From Candidatus Micrarchaeota archaeon (lineage in GTDB: Archaea > Micrarchaeota > Micrarchaeia > Anstonellales > Bilamarchaeaceae): 15,429 nucleotides of DNA. This document shows, in pieces, positions 1 through 15,429 of the stretch (position 1 is the first letter of the stretch; every line of letters begins with the position of its first letter). Under the pieces are notes generated by a model, which saw only the letters and a list, made by a program, of their open reading frames with translations, had not been told where the DNA came from and searched no databases. The stretch covers positions 1-15,429 of the forward strand of contig JBBSVN010000013.1 in the NCBI GenBank assembly GCA_038046765.1, read 5' to 3'. A program made the translations under genes and the position numbers.

Positions 1-34
1 CTCATAGCCAGCCTAAGAAAAGCATTAGGATTTA

Positions 35-52
35 AGTACTTTCGGAAGTACT
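35..52. promoter_or_regulatory. Inverted repeat AGTACTT-TCGG-AAGTACT (possible operator or 3' hairpin)
   Basis: Perfect 7-bp arms at 35-41 and 46-52. It lies just past the stop of ORF 66..455 and abuts a minus-strand TATA-like CTTAAAT (36-30), about 30 nt before a possible ATG at position 5. Confidence 0.35.
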
Positions 53-65
53 GAATTTATCCAAA

Positions 66-3821: not shown

Positions 3822-4367
3822 CTATTCTCTATCTACAATCTCAGTTTTTGCTTGATCTAAGTATCCTATGTCTTCAAGAGCCTCTGCAGCTTTTTTTCTT
3901 GTTTTTCTTATTCCATTACTCATTTCATGTAGTCCTGAAGTTATTGATTTTCGTCTATTTGCAAATAGCATTATTCCTACACCCATTAGAACTCCTAATC
4001 CACCTGCTTGAAGAGCTAAATTATGTTCAATATCCCAAAAATTTTGGACTAAATTTACAAAATAACTATATGCAGTTACACCTACGCTTGATGTAAGTAT
4101 GGCCGCACCTAATCCTCTTTCAAAAGTAATTACTTGTGGATCCATATCTTTTCTTTTAAGTTCAAATCTACTTAAGTGCATTTCACTTCTTATTTTATTC
4201 TCTTCTTGTTGATATTCAAAAATATTCCTTCCCAAATCCGCTTTTCTTAGTACTATCCCATCAAGTACTGGCGAATATATTTCTCTATTAATGTCCCTAC
4301 GTATATCTCGAAGTTGAGTGGACTGAGCATTAGAAATTTGAGCAGGATGGTTTAGTTTTCTGATCAT
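3822..4367 (-). CDS. Hypothetical membrane protein (2 predicted TM helices)
   Basis: 181-aa ORF with hydrophobic segments GLGAAILTSSVGVTAYSYFVNLV and LALQAGGLGVLMGVGIMLFA. GGTG RBS at 4376-4373 and AAAGGTTTATATA promoter-like element at about 4411-4399. Confidence 0.75.
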   Translation of the reverse strand: MIRKLNHPAQISNAQSTQLRDIRRDINREIYSPVLDGIVLRKADLGRNIFEYQQEENKIRSEMHLSRFELKRKDMDPQVITFERGLGAAILTSSVGVTAYSYFVNLVQNFWDIEHNLALQAGGLGVLMGVGIMLFANRRKSITSGLHEMSNGIRKTRKKAAEALEDIGYLDQAKTEIVDRE

Positions 4368-4465: not shown

Positions 4466-4840
4466 TTAAACTCCTGAAGTATGTACTGCCTCGATTTCTA
4501 TAAGCATTTTATTTTTACCCACCCGTGAAACTAAAACGTGCTCATTTCCACTTAAATGCATGTCTCGCTCTAAATCATTTGGAATTCTTAGAATAGTTCC
4601 TCCAGTACTCTTTGAAAGTTTTCTGTGAAGTTTTAATGGTTGTCCCCAAACACCCATACGCCTCGCAACTTCGATTGTTTTTTGACCTTGTTCCTCTGGA
4701 ATAAACTCTTCTTTACAATTTGTGCATCGCTCTCCCTTTTCGATAAATATGAAACCTTCTAATTCCGTAACTATATCATCAACAGAAGCCAGAACTCCCT
4801 TTTCACAGATCGGGCATGATTTTGTAGTATCAGTTTTCAT
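4466..4840 (-). CDS. YgiT/MqsA-type zinc-ribbon protein with C-terminal AbrB/MazE-like DNA-binding domain; putative antitoxin
   Basis: CPICEKG...RCTNCKEEF (2x CxxC) followed by LHRKLSKSTGGTILRIPNDLERDMHL...VLVSRVGKNKMLIEI, which matches the AbrB swapped-hairpin pattern. AGGTGA RBS lies inside the upstream gene, with an ATGA overlap at 4840-4837. Confidence 0.75.
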   Translation of the reverse strand: MKTDTTKSCPICEKGVLASVDDIVTELEGFIFIEKGERCTNCKEEFIPEEQGQKTIEVARRMGVWGQPLKLHRKLSKSTGGTILRIPNDLERDMHLSGNEHVLVSRVGKNKMLIEIEAVHTSGV

Positions 4841-5028
4841 TTAATATCACCTTCCGAACCGCTTATTATAAAAACGGTTTCAAATTCCAAATAATAAACA
4901 AATATGATTTTCTTTCCACCATCTTTTCTTATATATGATTCATATTTATTTTTTCCGATTTTCTCTGTTTTGTATGTTTCTATAAGTGCACTACGTAGTT
5001 GATTATAATCCCAGTCCCACTTACGCAT
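4837..5028 (-). CDS. DUF4258/RelE-superfamily-like small protein, putative toxin (N-terminus apparently extends to ~5068 but is frameshifted)
   Basis: Small basic ORF translationally coupled to the Zn-ribbon gene. The frame continues upstream of the annotated Met as KLDISKHFRDKY-MRKW, resembling the 'S/T-x-H...M' start of DUF4258-like toxins. Family assignment is by eye. Confidence 0.55.
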   Translation of the reverse strand: MRKWDWDYNQLRSALIETYKTEKIGKNKYESYIRKDGGKKIIFVYYLEFETVFIISGSEGDIK

Positions 5029-5191: not shown

Positions 5192-6367
5192 TTAGGATTG
5201 TTTTCTTAGCTCGTATTTTTTTACCAATTTATATATGGTATCATAATTCACATCTAATCTTTTTGCTATGGCTGGTATGCTCAAATCTTCATTCAAAAGC
5301 TTTTGCACAATTTCAATTCTACATTCGTCTATTATTTTATTAGGATCATAACGCTTATTAAGTAAAAATTCATAGATCTGATTAAGTGGAAAATTCATCA
5401 AATTTGATAGACGCTGTGCAAAACCTCTTGGTTTGAATTTAGGCCTTAGATTAAATGGATCAAGTTTCAATACTGCTCGTTTAATACTATCTAAATTTAA
5501 AGTTCTATCTTCTGATACCATCTGTCCTATTTGAACTGGGACAGTTGAGGTCGCAGGCATTTTACCAGTAAAAACATAATTATTTACATCAATAACTCCA
5601 CCTTCAGAAAAAACAGCGGCTCGCTCAACAAAATGTTTCAAGTCCCGAACGTTTCCGTTAAATCTTTGGGATATTGACCCAAGTTTTTCCAGAGCATTAT
5701 CTGAAAAAATCAATCCTTTTCCATATTCTTCACTTAAAAGCTCTAAAAAATGACTAACTAAGAGCGGAATGTCTTCTACTCTCTGCCATAATTGTGGCAT
5801 GTCTATTGTTAATCCAGTTAATCTTGAATAAAGGTCTCCCCTAAATTTACCACTTGCTATCTCCATTCTAAGATCTTTATTTGTAGCTGCAACTAAACGA
5901 AATTCTATTTTTTGAAATCGATCACTGCCAAGAGCTCGGATTTGTTTGTACTCCAGAGCTCTTAATAAAGCAGACTGAACATGCATTGGCATATCTCCAA
6001 TTTCATCTAAAAAAAGTGTTCCATTTTCAGCACACAAAATAGCTCCGCGCCTATCATTATACGCTCCTGTAAAAGCACCTTTGACATGACCAAATAATTC
6101 GCTTTGAAGAAGTTCGCCATTTGGAGTCGCAGCGCAATTTAGAGGAACTAAATCTCCTTTTCTACCGCTTTCTTTATGTAGTGCTTGAGCTACTAACTCT
6201 TTACCCGTGCCGCTTTCTCCAGTTATTAAAATAGGAAGTTTTGCTGGTGCAGCTCGTTCAATAATTAGTCTAATCTCTTCAATTTTTGGACTCTTTCCAA
6301 CAATTCCAAAGCGTCTATGCTCCAGAGGAATAGAAGAAGGTCTACCAATAACAATTGCTGCAACCAT
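5192..6367 (-). CDS. Sigma54-interacting (NtrC/PspF-family) AAA+ transcriptional regulator with C-terminal HTH and no sensor domain
   Basis: Walker A GESGTGKE, LNCAA, ELFGHVKGAFTGA, Walker B LFLDEIGDM, RLVAATNKDL, FRGDLYSRL and GNVRDLKHFVERA. C-terminal HTH SIPAIAKRLDVNYDTIYKLVKKY. Start is ATG at 6367 (or TTG at 6376), with TTTATATA at 6405-6398. Confidence 0.93.
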   Translation of the reverse strand: MVAAIVIGRPSSIPLEHRRFGIVGKSPKIEEIRLIIERAAPAKLPILITGESGTGKELVAQALHKESGRKGDLVPLNCAATPNGELLQSELFGHVKGAFTGAYNDRRGAILCAENGTLFLDEIGDMPMHVQSALLRALEYKQIRALGSDRFQKIEFRLVAATNKDLRMEIASGKFRGDLYSRLTGLTIDMPQLWQRVEDIPLLVSHFLELLSEEYGKGLIFSDNALEKLGSISQRFNGNVRDLKHFVERAAVFSEGGVIDVNNYVFTGKMPATSTVPVQIGQMVSEDRTLNLDSIKRAVLKLDPFNLRPKFKPRGFAQRLSNLMNFPLNQIYEFLLNKRYDPNKIIDECRIEIVQKLLNEDLSIPAIAKRLDVNYDTIYKLVKKYELRKQS

Positions 6368-6416
6368 ATTTATCAAATATTATATTGTTACAAAAAGTAT
6401 ATAAATAGTTAATAAA

Positions 6417-7605: not shown

Positions 7606-9900
7606 TTATCCCGTACTAACAAATCCAAAGTAAACTAGAACAAGTCCCAAGAGAATTAAGAAAGCACCGTAAACAATCGCGCCAATCGTTCTTCTTTTTG
7701 GGTCAGTCATAAATTTAGCAAATGCAGCTAGTTCAAGCGCAAATACTAAAACTCCGATACCAACCGCAAGCATTTTTGATAAATTCCACGTTAAGTTTGA
7801 GTTTATTCTAACAAAGTGCAATACTGAAAACAGATATGCTAAATAAACCAATCTGTGAAGGCGCTTCCAGTTTTTAGCCCCCAATTTAGCTGTTGCCCAG
7901 TCAGTTGAAGTCAAATACAGTGGTAGATAAATTGCAAATGCCATACTTCCAAAAAGAATCGCATTTTCTAGTGGATTAAGGTTTGCAAATATTGCGCTAG
8001 GTCCAATTTGTAAAAAGATTGAAACTGCGAGCATGTGAACTATTGCAAAAGTGAATCCCCAAACTCCAAGAGTTCTTCTATGTGTAATATAATTTATTTT
8101 TGGAACTAATATTGCAAGTGGTCCAACAATTAATGCTAGTCCAATCAGTTCTGCTGCAACATAAGCTGCTGAAAGTAATATCGCCCTGTTCAATGAACCT
8201 GCTAAATTTGTTAAAAATAAATAAAAGAATTGTATGAGCCAGAATGCAATTATCACTGCGCTTGATTTTAGTACGTAGCCAATGTTCTTTTTTGCGCCAG
8301 CAAATAGTTGCGGGCCTGTTTTTGTAGTTGCTGCTGTATTCGCTGTTCCGCCTTGCATCTCTACCTCGATATCATTTCCAGTTACGCGAACTTTAAATGC
8401 CTCAACTGCTTTTGGTGCTGGTGCTCCAAGTACTGCTCCTGTTTTTATATCGAACCGTGCATTATGGAGCGGGCATTGGATTGCACCATTTTCTATTGTA
8501 CCATCGCATAGCGAACCTCCGGCATGAGTGCATGTATTATCAATCGCGTAGTATGCTCCATCCATTTTGAAAAGTGCAAGTTTTGTTCCCCCTGCGGTAA
8601 TTCCAAGAGGTTTACCTTCAACAACATCGCTTACTTTCGCTACTTTGAAAAATTCTTTAGCGCCTGTTTTTAGCATTTGCGTGCGTGGCACTGGTTTTGC
8701 AATATTCGCTTTAGTTCTTGAAAATGAAAGTAAATTCGCATAAATATTTGAATTGCCAGTTACTAAGTCCGCCACTATAGATGAAGCAAAAGTCCCAAAT
8801 ACTAAGCCGTTTCCTCCAAACCCGCAACAACTTCCTACAAATACTTTTCCTTTATAATGTGGGTGTTCAGAAGCATAGGGTAAACCATCTGATGAATCAA
8901 ATAAACTTCCTGACCAGGTGTTTGTTACCTTAAATTCTGTTTTAAAGTATTTTTCTAAAAAGTTTTGTAACTTTAAAAATGGCGATTCTTTTGAAGGCGG
9001 TTCGCTAACTGAACGGTCCGAACCTCCTAAAATTACTGTATTCTTATCGAGCCTTCTATAATAAAAATAAGGATCAAATGTATCCCAAAATAAGTTATCC
9101 GAAAACGGTACTTCATTTTCAAACTTAGCCAATATAGAGTAAGTTATTTTTGGCATAAATAATGAATGAAGTTCAGAGAAAAATTTAGGTGGTAATCCTG
9201 TTGCAACAACAAGTTTTTTTGCCTCTACTTCTCCTTTGTCTGTTTTAGCTATTACAAATTCGCCAACATCCACATCTGTAACTTCGCTCTCCTCAAATAC
9301 CTGAATTTTTTTAGATTGCGGTAGGGCAAGTAATCCTAGTAAAAATTTCCTGACATTAAATTTACCTTCGTTGGAAAATTTTATTGCCTCTTTAATTGCA
9401 GGCGAAAAGGCTATTGCTTCTTTACCCGAAATAAAAGAACTATTTGGGTCCGCTTTTTTTATCGAATCCCACTCTTGCTTTAGCACTTGGTCATCTTTAG
9501 AATACGCACAATAGAATGATGAACAGTTAGAAAAGTCGCAATTAATTTTATTTTCCTTTATTGTACTAAATAAATATTGTTGTGTTTTTGTAGTTGCTTC
9601 AAAAAGTTGTTTTACAAATTCTTCTCCGTATAGTTTTTCTAATTCACAAACTTGAGTATCAGGAACCCTAGTCATAAATCCGGTAGTAAAAGCAGTATCC
9701 CCTGTTGCCACGTGATTTTTTTCTAATATTACAACTCTTAAACCTTTGTTAGCTAAATGCCACGCAGTCATTACTCCGACTATTCCGGCACCGACTACTA
9801 CAACATCAGTTTCGATCTTTTTATCAAGACTAGAAAATCTTTTTTGGTCTGGTACTGATTCTAACCATGGCGAAATTGTTAATATATTTTCATTTTTCAT
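7606..9900 (-). CDS. FAD-dependent oxidoreductase (DAO/YhfW-like) fused to a Rieske [2Fe-2S] ferredoxin and a ferric-reductase/MsrQ-like heme-binding transmembrane domain
   Basis: Rossmann motif DVVVVGAGIVG...VVILEK, WSG...SDGLPY and GFGGNGLVFG. Rieske motifs CTH (Cys457) and CPLH (Cys476) with RFDIKTG. C-terminal multi-TM region with HRRTLGVWGFTFAIVH, YLTSTD, WKRLHRLVY and SVLHF. Confidence 0.9.
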   Translation of the reverse strand: MKNENILTISPWLESVPDQKRFSSLDKKIETDVVVVGAGIVGVMTAWHLANKGLRVVILEKNHVATGDTAFTTGFMTRVPDTQVCELEKLYGEEFVKQLFEATTKTQQYLFSTIKENKINCDFSNCSSFYCAYSKDDQVLKQEWDSIKKADPNSSFISGKEAIAFSPAIKEAIKFSNEGKFNVRKFLLGLLALPQSKKIQVFEESEVTDVDVGEFVIAKTDKGEVEAKKLVVATGLPPKFFSELHSLFMPKITYSILAKFENEVPFSDNLFWDTFDPYFYYRRLDKNTVILGGSDRSVSEPPSKESPFLKLQNFLEKYFKTEFKVTNTWSGSLFDSSDGLPYASEHPHYKGKVFVGSCCGFGGNGLVFGTFASSIVADLVTGNSNIYANLLSFSRTKANIAKPVPRTQMLKTGAKEFFKVAKVSDVVEGKPLGITAGGTKLALFKMDGAYYAIDNTCTHAGGSLCDGTIENGAIQCPLHNARFDIKTGAVLGAPAPKAVEAFKVRVTGNDIEVEMQGGTANTAATTKTGPQLFAGAKKNIGYVLKSSAVIIAFWLIQFFYLFLTNLAGSLNRAILLSAAYVAAELIGLALIVGPLAILVPKINYITHRRTLGVWGFTFAIVHMLAVSIFLQIGPSAIFANLNPLENAILFGSMAFAIYLPLYLTSTDWATAKLGAKNWKRLHRLVYLAYLFSVLHFVRINSNLTWNLSKMLAVGIGVLVFALELAAFAKFMTDPKRRTIGAIVYGAFLILLGLVLVYFGFVSTG

Positions 9901-11908: not shown

Positions 11909-12547
11909 ATGAGATTTATTAAAATTTTTACCTCTCTATTAGCGTTGCTTGTATTATCATCCATAAGTAGTGCTATTTTTATAGGTGTTAATGGAAGTTC
12001 ACCACCTACATGCGTGCAGGGTATAAATTTTATCTGGAACTTTTCAACAATCCAGGCTGCAGTTAATAATGCAACTACTGGAGATACTATTTATGTATGT
12101 AAAAATAGTACTAATCCGTATGGGGAACAAGTAGTTGTAAATGTATCAGTAAACATTTATGGTAATCAAAGTACAGATGTTAATTTGTCGATCCCAACTA
12201 CTGCACCAATATTATTTAATGTAACTAGCAATTGGGTAAACATAACTAATATATCATTTAATGGAGGTGATGGTACTGGAGGCACTTTTGTATCAGGTAT
12301 TCTTCTAAGTAGTTCAAATTATAGTAAAATCTACAACAACAGCTTTACTAAAAATCTCTACAATATATATGTATACAATTCCAATAACGTAACTATCGAA
12401 AATAACAGTATCGATAGACAGCAGCACGGTGGGGCTTCTGAAATATCTATCTATTTGAATTCAAGCAGTATGAATAATATTACTAATAACTCGTTTTACA
12501 CTTCAGGTGGATCGGGGGGGAACAAGCATTTCTATAAAGTTAGTTAA
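11909..12547 (+). CDS. N-terminal fragment of a large secreted parallel beta-helix (PbH1/NosD-like) surface protein
   Basis: Signal peptide MRFIKIFTSLLALLVLSSISSA, TIQAAVNNATTGDTIYV motif and Asn-ladder repeats. The frame ends 9 codons after a G7 tract (12514-12520). TATA-like TTTTAAA lies about 29 nt upstream. Confidence 0.85.
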   Translation: MRFIKIFTSLLALLVLSSISSAIFIGVNGSSPPTCVQGINFIWNFSTIQAAVNNATTGDTIYVCKNSTNPYGEQVVVNVSVNIYGNQSTDVNLSIPTTAPILFNVTSNWVNITNISFNGGDGTGGTFVSGILLSSSNYSKIYNNSFTKNLYNIYVYNSNNVTIENNSIDRQQHGGASEISIYLNSSSMNNITNNSFYTSGGSGGNKHFYKVS

Positions 12548-15429
12548 TTCAACTGATAATCTTATCTATGATAATAATATGACTGGTGCGTCTGGTACTG
12601 CTGCATTATGGGTTGCACTAGACTCACCAAGAAATAACCTTACGTCAAATAAAATAAATAGTTTAAATGCTGGTGCAAGTGGCATCTACATTGCTTCATC
12701 TTATAATGTGCTATTAAATAACTATGTTCGAAATTGGGGTGGCAGTGGGGCTTCAGGAATTTATTCTGATGCAAGCAACAACAACTATACTAATAATCTT
12801 CTTCACGGAGATAGTGATCGCGGTCCAGGTTACAGTTTTTCAAGTTCCAATAACAATAATATAATTAACAATACTGTTTCAAGTAATAATCCTGCTTCTA
12901 GTTACTCAACTAATACTGCTGGTTTTTCATTTTCAAGTAGTTCGAATAATGTTCTTATAAATACTACTGTTTTACAACCTCAACCTCCCGGTCCCGGTGT
13001 TCAATTTACTTCAAATTCTAACAATAACACGCTACAAAACATTAATGTCTCTAGCTTTTCAGGAGGTTTTTCTGCAAATGGAGTATTAATTTCTGCTAGC
13101 TATAACAATACTGTTAAAGACAGTAACTTTTCGAATTTGGATGGCGGAGCAGGTGCTGCTTCTACTGCTATAAATTTAACAAGCGGAAGCGCAAATAATA
13201 CTATCTCAAATAATAGTATGAATACAACTACTCTCTCTAGTTTCTTGGACTTAAACACAAACTCTGAAAATAATACGATTAAAGATAATGTCTTATACAA
13301 AGTTGTTCTAGGTTTTCATATTGGTGCTACTGCCAAGTACAATTTAATATTTAATAATACGGTTAGACATTCCACTACTCAAGCATTTCAAGTAAATGGT
13401 GGTAGTTCGGATAACTTATTTGAAAATAATACCGCTATTTATTGTGTCAGTTATTGTTATTATTTTTTCAATGTAAATAAGACAAATGTAACTGGAAATA
13501 ATGCTACAAACGGTCAGGCCGGATTCTATTTTACAACTGGAAGTTGGGTGATTGCAGTTAATAACACTGCATTTAACAGCTCAGAAAATGGATTTTATTC
13601 AGACATAAATAACAGCGCATTTATCAATAATACTGCGTCTTTAAGTAACGGTAGCGGATTTAATTTTACTTCTTACTCTTTTGGAATTAATTTTACAAAT
13701 AATACTGCATTCAATAATAGTTATGCTGGTATTGCATTTGCACTAGGTTCAAACTTTAGTAATTTAACAAACAATACGGCATATAAGAATTTTATCGGTT
13801 TATACATATTAAACACAAATGATACGCGAATAAGCGGAGATCATTATTATAATAATAGTTTTGATCTTCGTGTGGAAGATACAATAAACAGTAATCGTTT
13901 AATTAATTTTTCAAGAGTTATAATTGACAGTCCAAGAGGAGATTATGCTAATTATTCTAATTTATCCATAAATATGACTCTATATGGTAATAGTGCTTTC
14001 ATAATAAACTGGAGCAATCTGACTAATCTGGTTAATCTCCCTGCATCTTCGTATGTTTCATTTGGAAACAAATTCCTTAACATAACTAACGTTACTAGTA
14101 ACATTACTTTTACTAATGTTGCATGGCACTGGCAACAGAATGAGATTACACTGGGTTATGTAGAAAGTTTATTTGAAGTTTGGAAATTTAATCATACTGG
14201 AGTTTGGAATAAATTAACTACGACCTTAGATACATCTGGAAATTCATTAAATTTCGATAATATAAATACTTTTAGTCTTTTCTCAATACTTATGCTTAAC
14301 GATACCACTGCTCCAACAGTGGCACTTAATTCGCCGGTAGCTCATACTGCGTTTAGTACTGCTACGGTAAATTTCAATTTCACTGGAACAGATAATGGTG
14401 CTAGTACGCTTAATTGTACTATTTTTGTTGATGGGGTAATGAATAACTCAAACTCTTCAACTACAAATGGCAGTGCAACCAATATTACTGTTTTAAGTAT
14501 TCCCCAAGGAAACCATACCTGGTTTACACAGTGTGCTGATAGTGCAAATAACTATGCAAATGCAACTGCAAGAAATTTCACTGTAGATACTACTGTTCCA
14601 GCAATTACTCTCAATACTCCTGTTGCAAATAACATTTCAAACATAACTACTGGTAATTTTGCATTTACGCCTACAGATAATGTTGCAACTTCTTTCAACT
14701 GTTCAATTTCGATTGATGGAACACTAAGGGTCAGTAATGCCTCAACCATCAATAATACTGCAACTAATTTAAGTTTAGTCAGTTTAGGGCAAGGTAATCA
14801 CACTTGGTTTGCAAGTTGTTCTGATACTGTCAATAATTCAGTAAATACTTCTGCTCAGAATTTTTCTATTGATAGTGTGGCTCCAAGTATTACTCTTAAT
14901 TACCCAATTAATCATACTGTCTTTAGTTCAAGCACGGTAAACTTTACTATAACTGCCACGGATAATCTGGCACTACCAATGAACTGTTCAATATTTGTTG
15001 ACGGTTCCTTAAACTTATCTAATACTTCAACTATCAATAATACTGCAACTAACCTAAGTTTAACTGGAATAGGACAGGGCAATCACACGTGGTATTCAGT
15101 ATGTTTAGATATGGCTAACAATTCTATAACGACTGGTTCAAGAAATTTCACTGTAGATACTACTGTTCCAGCAATTACTCTCAATACTCCTGTTGCAAAT
15201 AATATTTCAAATGTAAGCACAATGAACTTTAGTTTTACTCCATCTGACAATACAATCGGTGCATTAAATTGTTCATTAACTGTTGATGGAACCTTAATAT
15301 TCAGTAATACCTCAACTCAAAATAATACTGTAACAAATATTAGTTTAACGAGTCTTGGGGAATCAAATCATACGTATGTAATTGGTTGTTCAGATTTAGC
15401 AAATAATTCAGTAAATAGCAGTGCAACTA
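12522..15429 (+). CDS. Continuation of the large surface glycoprotein (beta-helix repeats, PGF-pre-PGF-like domain, tandem Ig-like repeats); open to the window end
   Basis: Hand translation from 12522 gives TSISIKLVNSTDNLIYDNNMTG... with no stop to 15429 (~969 codons; first in-frame ATG at 12579). The ORF track misses it because it lacks a stop. It contains beta-helix repeats (GIYIASSYNVLLNN, NNTAFN...GF), a ...WNKLTT...FSLFSI domain ending near 14290, then DTTxP-initiated repeats. Confidence 0.9.
14301..15429 (+). repeat. Tandem 285-bp (95-aa) Ig-like domain repeats, at least 4 copies
   Basis: Units start at 14301 (DTTAP), 14586 (DTTVP), 14871 (DSVAP) and 15156 (DTTVP, truncated by the window). 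Each has DN...NC..xVDG/IDG...NHTW/Y...C.D..NN with two conserved Cys. Confidence 0.92.

Follow-up and report, generated by a model that had tools for sequence, protein, structure and literature searches.

A PspF-type sigma54 activator in the Bilamarchaeaceae, an archaeal family in whose genomes no sigma54 was found

The Bilamarchaeaceae, a family of tiny archaea of the order Anstonellales within the Micrarchaeota (PMC8561730), keep a bacterial-type motor protein whose only known partner is bacterial, and this suggests that they may live on bacteria and could tamper with the gene expression of these cells. The protein is a bacterial enhancer-binding protein (bEBP) of the PspF type, as judged by its sequence and predicted fold, yet no cognate sigma54 is found in its own genome. 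The reading preferred here, with a probability of roughly 0.55, is that the archaeon makes the bEBP and delivers it into a bacterial host, where it would either drive or jam the sigma54 polymerase. A loop that grips sigma54 and is kept under selection in a lineage without sigma54 points to a bacterial target. If this is true, the orphan sigma factors of DPANN archaea would be explained, a candidate lineage of bacteria-parasitising archaea would be at hand with its hosts narrowed to sigma54-bearing bacteria, and effectors passing from archaea to bacteria would constitute a new kind of cross-domain system. If the protein is instead repurposed within the archaeon, there would be an unrecognised archaeal substrate for a bacterial remodelling motor. 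A 2025 survey gives a count of zero for bEBPs in 380 archaeal proteomes, archaea serving as the negative control for bEBP searches (PMC12316311), and no report of archaeal bEBPs was met in the literature searched, which lies mostly outside subscription journals.

The bEBP gene, its product and its promoter

The window, i.e. the whole stretch of 15,429 nucleotides that was analysed, belongs to a metagenome-assembled genome, hereafter G000. The features that concern the bEBP are listed below; all lie on the minus strand.

5192..6367, minus: bEBP gene, 391 aa from the likely start, ATG 6367
6376, minus: alternative start, an in-frame TTG of the bEBP gene (full open reading frame 5192-6376)
6398..6405, minus: archaeal TATA box, at -38 from ATG 6367 and -29 from TTG 6376
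6385..6397, minus: conserved element directly 3' of the TATA box, a T-run followed by AAC, forming an imperfect palindrome; also present with orthologs at other loci and in a class of orphan genes
6305..6367, minus: N-terminal extension, residues 1-21, of low confidence in the predicted model; candidate export leader
6197..6220, minus: Walker A, with Lys56 in 22/22 sequences
6062..6079, minus: loop L1 GAFTGA, residues 97-102, with G97, T100, G101 and A102 in 22/22 and F99 in 20/22 (Tyr in 2)
6002..6019, minus: Walker B, with D121 and E122 in 22/22
5822..5842, minus: arginine fingers R176 and R182, each in 22/22
5645..5656, minus: sensor II (R241), in 21/22
5507..5572, minus: flexible linker, pLDDT below 50 at residues 273-287
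5195..5506, minus: family-specific six-helix double-HTH module, arranged like an AraC DNA-binding domain

The sequence-only reading of the window had described all bEBP motifs as intact, with GAFTGA at exactly 6079-6062, and the motif coordinates, the Pfam match and the fold match confirm this. PF00158 covers residues 22-188 (E 5e-59; 199 bits against a cut-off of 20.2), the lid family PF25601 residues 195-262, and HTH families residues 350-386; the switch Asn77 can be read directly from the sequence. Compared with the AAA+ domains of FleQ and NtrC1, the predicted model shows an rmsd of 1.4-2.2 Å (1.4 Å for FleQ), and its fold matches include PspF, NtrC1 and FleQ. Receiver, GAF and PAS families, which the same reading had not seen, are found in 0/16 members of alignment A1, and the short N-terminal extension it described corresponds to residues 1-21. 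An N-terminal CARF domain of the RtcR type is likewise absent, the matches starting only from model positions 163 and 179 onward, i.e. in the AAA+ part, to which the PADLOC matches are also confined. The AAA+ domain begins no more than 46 residues from the start in 19/19 genome-derived family sequences as against 2/77 complete bacterial relatives, kin not being independent in this comparison. By every test of sequence and predicted fold, the protein is an intact, sensor-less sigma54 activator. Basic N-termini of low hydrophobicity are common to the bEBPs, the sigma factors and the promoter-class genes described below, and a classifier of N-terminal leaders, trained on hand-picked sets, places the bEBP gene at the 97th percentile.

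The C-terminus had been described as unusually long and ending in an HTH. It is long and does carry an HTH at residues 350-386, but it is formed by a linker and a double-HTH module, not by a single HTH. The predicted module has 103 residues and six helices (pLDDT 96.6), and its best fold match is an AraC-type domain (Z 8.9, rmsd 3.1, 95 residues aligned), which is a moderate score where helical domains are concerned; neither the ESM Atlas nor Foldseek gave a clear family. One to four copies of the module occur in 17 family bEBP sequences, and 2 carry an ordinary Fis-type HTH. A tail model built without the window gene matches the window tail over positions 6-100 (E 1e-11), with 38.2 bits as against 27.7 for the best of 80 bacterial bEBPs. 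A tail search over 1.84 billion representatives returned mostly generic multi-HTH repeats, and the full-length proteins joining an AAA part to the module, among 13 inspected, were family members or close kin. Stand-alone modules are clear in 5 bEBP-bearing genomes and, in bEBP-less genomes, appear in 2/81 as weak and partial matches (E 7e-5 and 5e-4); since they are almost confined to bEBP genomes, an internal circuit would fit just as well. Proteins made up purely of double-HTH modules (one to four copies) were observed at L169:2551-4389 and L170-L174, one of them directly 3' of a bEBP gene. A possible parallel to the stand-alone modules is fam04645 in Table S3 of PMC8204110, a tandem Fis-HTH family given for 26% of Woesearchaeota and for no other group listed in that table.

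The gene had also been credited with a TATA-like box of its own at 6405-6398, and this stands up genome-wide. Counted over 1484 ATG starts, TATA matches have their main peak, of 65, at -30 and a second one, of 16, at -38, above a background of 1-8; the bEBP box lies on the second peak, so its position is not due to chance. The box and the downstream element are common to orthologs with different neighbours. A matrix from nine ortholog promoters, chosen by eye from 17, ranks the window bEBP 1st of 425 TATA-bearing genes. The independent test is a matrix trained in this genome without the bEBP, and it scores the bEBP promoters of relatives above those of neighbours (13/17 with a TATA box; p 0.003). 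When 601 candidate promoters of this genome (417 genes) are fitted with two classes, the log-likelihood rises by 141 units, as against 38-43 for shuffled data.

The promoter class carrying this element, which is 13-14 nt long and immediately follows the TATA box, is rich in orphans with basic N-termini. Pfam matches at E 1e-12 or better were obtained for 15/60 top class genes and 34/60 controls, and kinases or ankyrins for 7/60 top class genes (6 at the control threshold) and 0/60 controls; the original thresholds differed (1e-6 versus 1e-12), the counts are given at a common one, and 60 of 113 control genes were scanned. Among 113 scanned class genes there are 7 Ser/Thr kinases, 3 ankyrin proteins, a Fic protein, a pentapeptide protein and two sigma-region-4 proteins, and housekeeping genes also belong to the class, lower in the ranking; 86 further genes were hand-picked from 140 ranked and allow no rate to be derived. 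The element is a candidate operator of a repressor. A single promoter regulon that would include the sigma70 genes was rejected, because the sigma70 genes of relatives do not share the element: of 15 with a TATA, 2 score 3 or more, and the median is below controls. An orphan gene in the window at 3822-4367 (181 aa) has a TATA box at -39, and its product has a polar N-terminus and two hydrophobic segments.

Host genome, distribution and origin

The contig is native and archaeal. Genome G000 (1.52 Mb, 89.7% complete, contamination 0.15%) encodes TBP and TFB. In codon usage the bEBP gene ranks at the 84th percentile among 645 genes, and the tetranucleotide distance of the contig is within the range of the genome (7/85 chunks are equally far or farther), the nearest of 65 bacterial loci being twice as far. 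The CarB encoded on the contig is 67-76% identical to that of the family genomes it was compared with (4/4), as against 55% for one bacterium, and both composition and contig ends, the latter matching further contigs of G000, agree with a native origin. The earlier doubt that the contig might be bacterial, or chimeric with rpoN, is settled by TBP and TFB, the CarB identity, the composition and the absence of any rpoN domain in the genome searched. In run X3, possibly from the source study, an 1811-base contig joins most of the bEBP gene to its downstream neighbours, and a further contig covers the junction between the 5' end of the gene and corA. Runs of three other studies also contain identical gene fragments, and no single contig of another run extends over all of the 4-kb stretch.

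Several other features of the window were observed. A sequence of 53-55 bases at window 1-55 is identical to the starts of contigs C1, C11, C12, C16 and C20 and is an assembly-breaking repeat. A surface beta-helix gene at 11909-15428 is split into two overlapping open reading frames in different frames near 12507-12547, by a frameshift or an assembly error. At 7606-9900, an FAD-dependent oxidase, a Rieske ferredoxin and an MsrQ-like heme membrane domain are fused. Two small overlapping open reading frames without a Pfam match at 4466-5028, encoding a Cys-motif protein and a 63-aa partner, look antitoxin-toxin-like by eye.

The bEBP is present in 18/99 family genomes (the window genome and 17/98 others), at unrelated archaeal loci, and its bearers span 8/23 family genera; matches came from 18/98 other genomes, namely 17 true bEBPs, one of which is divided between two contigs, and a weak match to another ATPase. 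A lone recent transfer, another option considered in the sequence-only reading, is therefore not borne out, as 17/98 other family genomes carry the gene and GAFTGA is the most strongly constrained stretch of the domain. The proteins vary in length from 332 to 1928 aa, without sensor domains. Neighbours of the orthologs, named by eye from translations, include Lon, ValRS and HMG-CoA reductase, and the loci inspected showed neither a conserved neighbour nor a target operon. Outside the family, matches occur in 3/325 sampled phylum genomes, two of them among archaeal genes; the third, in G288, is a NifA-like GAF protein and looks like contamination. The two in other families are a bEBP with an altered loop and an unrelated tail (L106, G151) and one with an intact loop, in a genome that also has the SLT-like protein described below (L109, G272). 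A whole-protein search of named genomes gave at least 80 bacterial loci and no archaeal one among the matches listed.

In a tree of 146 rows, a clade with an SH-aLRT of 98 unites the other 18 family sequences, and the window gene adjoins this clade among three bacterial-type rows that had been chosen for their likeness to the gene. In a 45-row tree, built without G066b, G151, G272, G288 and 97 of 124 bacterial rows, 18 family rows including the window gene fall on one side with a support of 82. Neither tree points to a particular bacterial donor, and a single acquisition of the family bEBP is likely. A viral origin finds no support, the tail being present in 0/80 bEBPs from viral contigs.

Missing sigma54, the GAFTGA loop and other bacterial-type parts

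The sigma54 core-binding and activator-interacting domains were each found in 0/99 family genomes, with controls positive in 4/14, and the sigma54 DNA-binding domain has no match in the window genome (89.7% complete). The -24/-12 promoters show no excess upstream of 1561 window-genome genes (4 seen versus 2.8 expected), as against 22 versus 4.0 expected in 635 genes of bacterial bEBP loci. A bEBP is normally accompanied in its own genome by a cognate sigma54 together with -24/-12 promoters; here neither a sigma54 domain nor an excess of such promoters was found. In the supplement of PMC8204110 a figure label refers to sigma54, and this may bear on rpoN in some DPANN.

A check for selection on GAFTGA across homologues, proposed together with the first reading, shows that no part of the domain is more strongly constrained. 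Among the six-residue stretches of the AAA+ domain, GAFTGA evolves the most slowly, with a mean rate of 0.16 versus 1.03 for the domain; Walker A (0.20) and Walker B (0.22) are both above it. These rates come from 22 sequences (19 from genomes and 3 database proteins) with 15.4 substitutions per site. The GAFTGA codons show synonymous variation, the catalytic residues are retained in 21-22/22 sequences, and the closest pair has a dN of 0.33, a dS of 1.42 and a dN/dS of ~0.23, the dS being near saturation; a metagenome search with the C-terminal 212 residues gave one weak locus and no close strain from which an unsaturated dN/dS could be taken. According to Francke 2011 (PMC3162934), homologs that work independently of sigma54, and those of two bacteria without sigma54, have substitutions or deletions in this loop. 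The motif contacts region I of sigma54 as well as the -12 DNA, and it has an effect on ATP coupling (PMC7175178), so that its constraint is no proof of a sigma54 ligand.

Other bacterial-type transcription proteins occur in the same family. Sigma70 region 2, in line with the sigma70 genes already reported for DPANN (Castelle 2021, PMC8204110), is found in 27/99 family genomes, mostly among archaeal genes; the region 2.2 Asp is invariant in 16/16 aligned sequences, and one member matches RpoD with an E of 1e-43. Among 20 sigma loci inspected, two (L124 and L126) are unlike the others and may be mis-binned. There is no association with the bEBP, sigma70 being present in 5/18 genomes with the bEBP and 22/81 without it. 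Three sigma70 region-4 proteins without region 2 are encoded in the window genome (G000:C5:75446-76318, C6:2825-4117 and C7:6576-7550; best E 6e-15). Matches like the C-terminal domain of the alpha subunit (alphaCTD-like) were obtained in 9/99 family genomes, 5 of them over the cut-off, and the five proteins inspected (121-364 aa) are not whole alpha subunits. As side observations, relatives were seen to carry two or three divergent sigma70 genes in tandem (L177, L178, L179 and L181), one of them encoding 1661 aa, and stand-alone alphaCTD-like proteins with basic N-termini occur at L183:868-1962 and L184-L187, also in relatives, with at least two copies at L183.

The window genome further encodes an 856-aa Cys-rich surface protein (G000:C16:2067-4637, minus strand, locus L243) that combines a lipoprotein-like leader with an SLT-like domain; homologs of the protein are present in 91/99 family genomes. 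Within the order, the SLT-like domain was found in 61/64, 20/23 and 12/14 genomes of three families, and outside it in 0/75 and 0/54 genomes of two families. Glu-Ser at the catalytic position is invariant in 13/13, and 18/18 PDB matches are lytic transglycosylases, although weak ones (E 0.005 at best, over 35 residues), with a Pfam E of 5e-4 in this genome, where M23 and peptidoglycan-binding domains were not found (89.7% complete). Enzymes of a similar kind have been taken as signs of predation in Woesearchaeota (PMC9723730, PMC12352652). A TraG/VirB4-like ATPase (G000:C2:60521-66816; E 2e-10), clustered with membrane and uncharacterised proteins, is a possible part of a transfer machine; TrbL/VirB6 has no Pfam match in the window genome (89.7% complete). 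Separate small SLT-family proteins with basic N-termini were observed in three relatives (L256:1192-1908, L259 and L261; best E 2e-27).

A bacterial host, known systems and competing explanations

According to the preferred reading, the archaeon would express the bEBP from its own TATA promoter and deliver it into a bacterial host or prey cell, where the sensor-less protein would assemble as an always-on AAA+ ring. GAFTGA would grip region I of the host sigma54 and the double-HTH tail would guide the protein, with the outcome that host sigma54 promoters would be switched on or the sigma54 holoenzyme tied up. The bEBP would be one member of a variable host-directed arsenal that includes sigma70, sigma-region-4 and alphaCTD-like proteins. 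An intact motor, selection on the loop, no recognisable target of its own, an archaeal promoter and a family-wide spread can be read from the sequences, and the ligand of GAFTGA and the possible constitutive activity of sensor-less forms are established bEBP biochemistry; export, a bacterial host and an effect on that host we infer.

This reading is preferred because the lineage has no recognisable sigma54 target of its own, GAFTGA is still selected and a sensor domain is absent; because the sigma70, alphaCTD-like and region-4 parts fit only a bacterial polymerase; and because of the SLT-like surface protein and the orphan promoter class with basic N-termini. Of the three options raised in the sequence-only reading, an effector acting on the sigma54 regulon of a bacterial partner is now the best supported, though it stays conditional. 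A DctD lacking both its sensor and its DNA-binding part activates many sigma54 promoters in another species (PMC3844500). On the other hand, the cultivated DPANN hosts are all archaeal (10.1101/2023.02.24.529834), and Anstonellales have been interpreted as having a rich metabolism and perhaps a weaker dependence on hosts (PMC8561730, PMC12892359); the weak SLT matches, the lack of M23 and the sigma70 genes, with neither a shared promoter nor co-occurrence, also count against it. A broader proposal, slightly less than an even bet, is that the Bilamarchaeaceae, and probably the whole order, are parasites or predators of bacteria that would breach the wall by means of the lytic-transglycosylase-like surface protein, inject sigma54 activators, sigma70 factors and polymerase-fragment mimics, and so reprogram transcription.

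Among known systems, PspF and HrpR/HrpS (group 4, PMC7175178) resemble the window bEBP in having a clade-6 AAA+ domain with the catalytic motifs and GAFTGA, no regulatory domain and a C-terminal HTH. The window bEBP differs in being archaeal, without rpoN and behind a TATA box, and in its tail, a double-HTH module that may be repeated or stand alone. A PspF ortholog was considered and rejected (TIGR02974, 204 bits versus a cut-off of 443.55). TyrR, DhaR, HupR and VpsR (PMC3162934) are likewise NtrC-family ATPases without a sigma54 of their own, but their GAFTGA is broken, whereas in the window bEBP it is intact and the most constrained stretch. The sigma70 factors of DPANN (fam00359, Castelle 2021, PMC8204110) are, like the bEBP, bacterial transcription proteins without a bacterial core polymerase; that paper leaves their function unexplained and raises bacterial hosts, i.e. 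DPANN living on bacteria, as an open question, and its searched text and table contain no bEBP family. Unlike sigma70, the bEBP depends on one particular protein from outside, sigma54, so that the question becomes sharper and can be put to an assay. The GH23 enzymes of Woesearchaeota (PMC9723730) and other archaeal peptidoglycan hydrolases (PMC12352652) are also genomic signs of small archaea attacking bacteria; they act from outside, whereas the bEBP would act inside, on host transcription, and in Micrarchaeota. The principle of the proposed role is that of a parasite's transcription factor redirecting the polymerase of the host. Phage sigma factors and TAL effectors work in this way. To our knowledge there is no archaeon-to-bacterium case, and none was met in the literature searched.

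The main rival, which keeps alive the earlier suggestion of a repurposed repressor or remodeller and is unlikely though far from negligible, places the bEBP inside the archaeon: the tail would bind archaeal DNA, GAFTGA would act on a mimic of sigma54 region I, either a protein of the archaeon or a DNA structure (a repressor, TFB/TBP or a closed complex), and the stand-alone tail modules would be competitors of the bEBP. The trees do not contradict a single origin with long residence thereafter, the gene has a conserved promoter of its own, the modules stand alone in 5 bEBP genomes (2/81 others having weak and partial ones), a short helical ligand would escape HMM searches, and Castelle 2021 (PMC8204110) suggests that DPANN sigma factors may help to run acquired bacterial genes. 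However, known sigma54-independent homologs lose the loop (PMC3162934), which is here the most conserved stretch; presence in 18/99 genomes at shifting loci, with lengths of 332 to 1928 aa, is unlike a core regulator; the loci inspected share no neighbour or target operon; and the same genomes carry several other bacterial polymerase parts without the core enzyme.

An improbable alternative is traffic in the reverse direction, in which the host sigma54-polymerase would enter the archaeon, or DNA of the archaeon would pass into the host, with the bEBP then activating archaeal -24/-12 genes much as phage sigma factors act on phage genes. A bacterial partner would again be needed, so that the polymerase parts and the SLT evidence are shared with the effector reading; the TraG/VirB4-like ATPase (E 2e-10) and the entry into the host cytoplasm reported for one DPANN (10.1101/2023.02.24.529834) would suit it. 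Against it stand the missing TrbL/VirB6 Pfam match in the window genome and the lack of a -24/-12 excess over 1561 genes, in which a handful of targets could hide.

Marginally less credible again is a relic, or a set of independent bacterial transfers, retained without any function that depends on the loop. The patchy presence would agree with it, as would the 146-row tree, where the window gene lies next to the clade formed by the other 18 family sequences and not within it, but the site rates largely refute it, and against it also speak the catalytic residues kept in 21-22/22 sequences, the dN/dS of ~0.23 (dS near saturation), the fully host-like codon usage, the shared upstream element, the match of the leave-out tail model to the window tail (E 1e-11) and the 18 family rows on one side of the 45-row tree (support 82).

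Mis-binning of DNA from a bacterium or virus, or chimerism of the contig, might be suggested by the metagenomic assembly, the 4-kb stretch spanned by no contig of another run and the contaminant-like NifA match in G288; this explanation is refuted in practice and hardly credible, given the contamination of 0.15%, the native composition, the CarB identity, the contig-end matches, the 0/80 viral-contig bEBPs with the tail, the linking contigs, the identical gene fragments in runs of three other studies and the orthologs lying beside archaeal genes.
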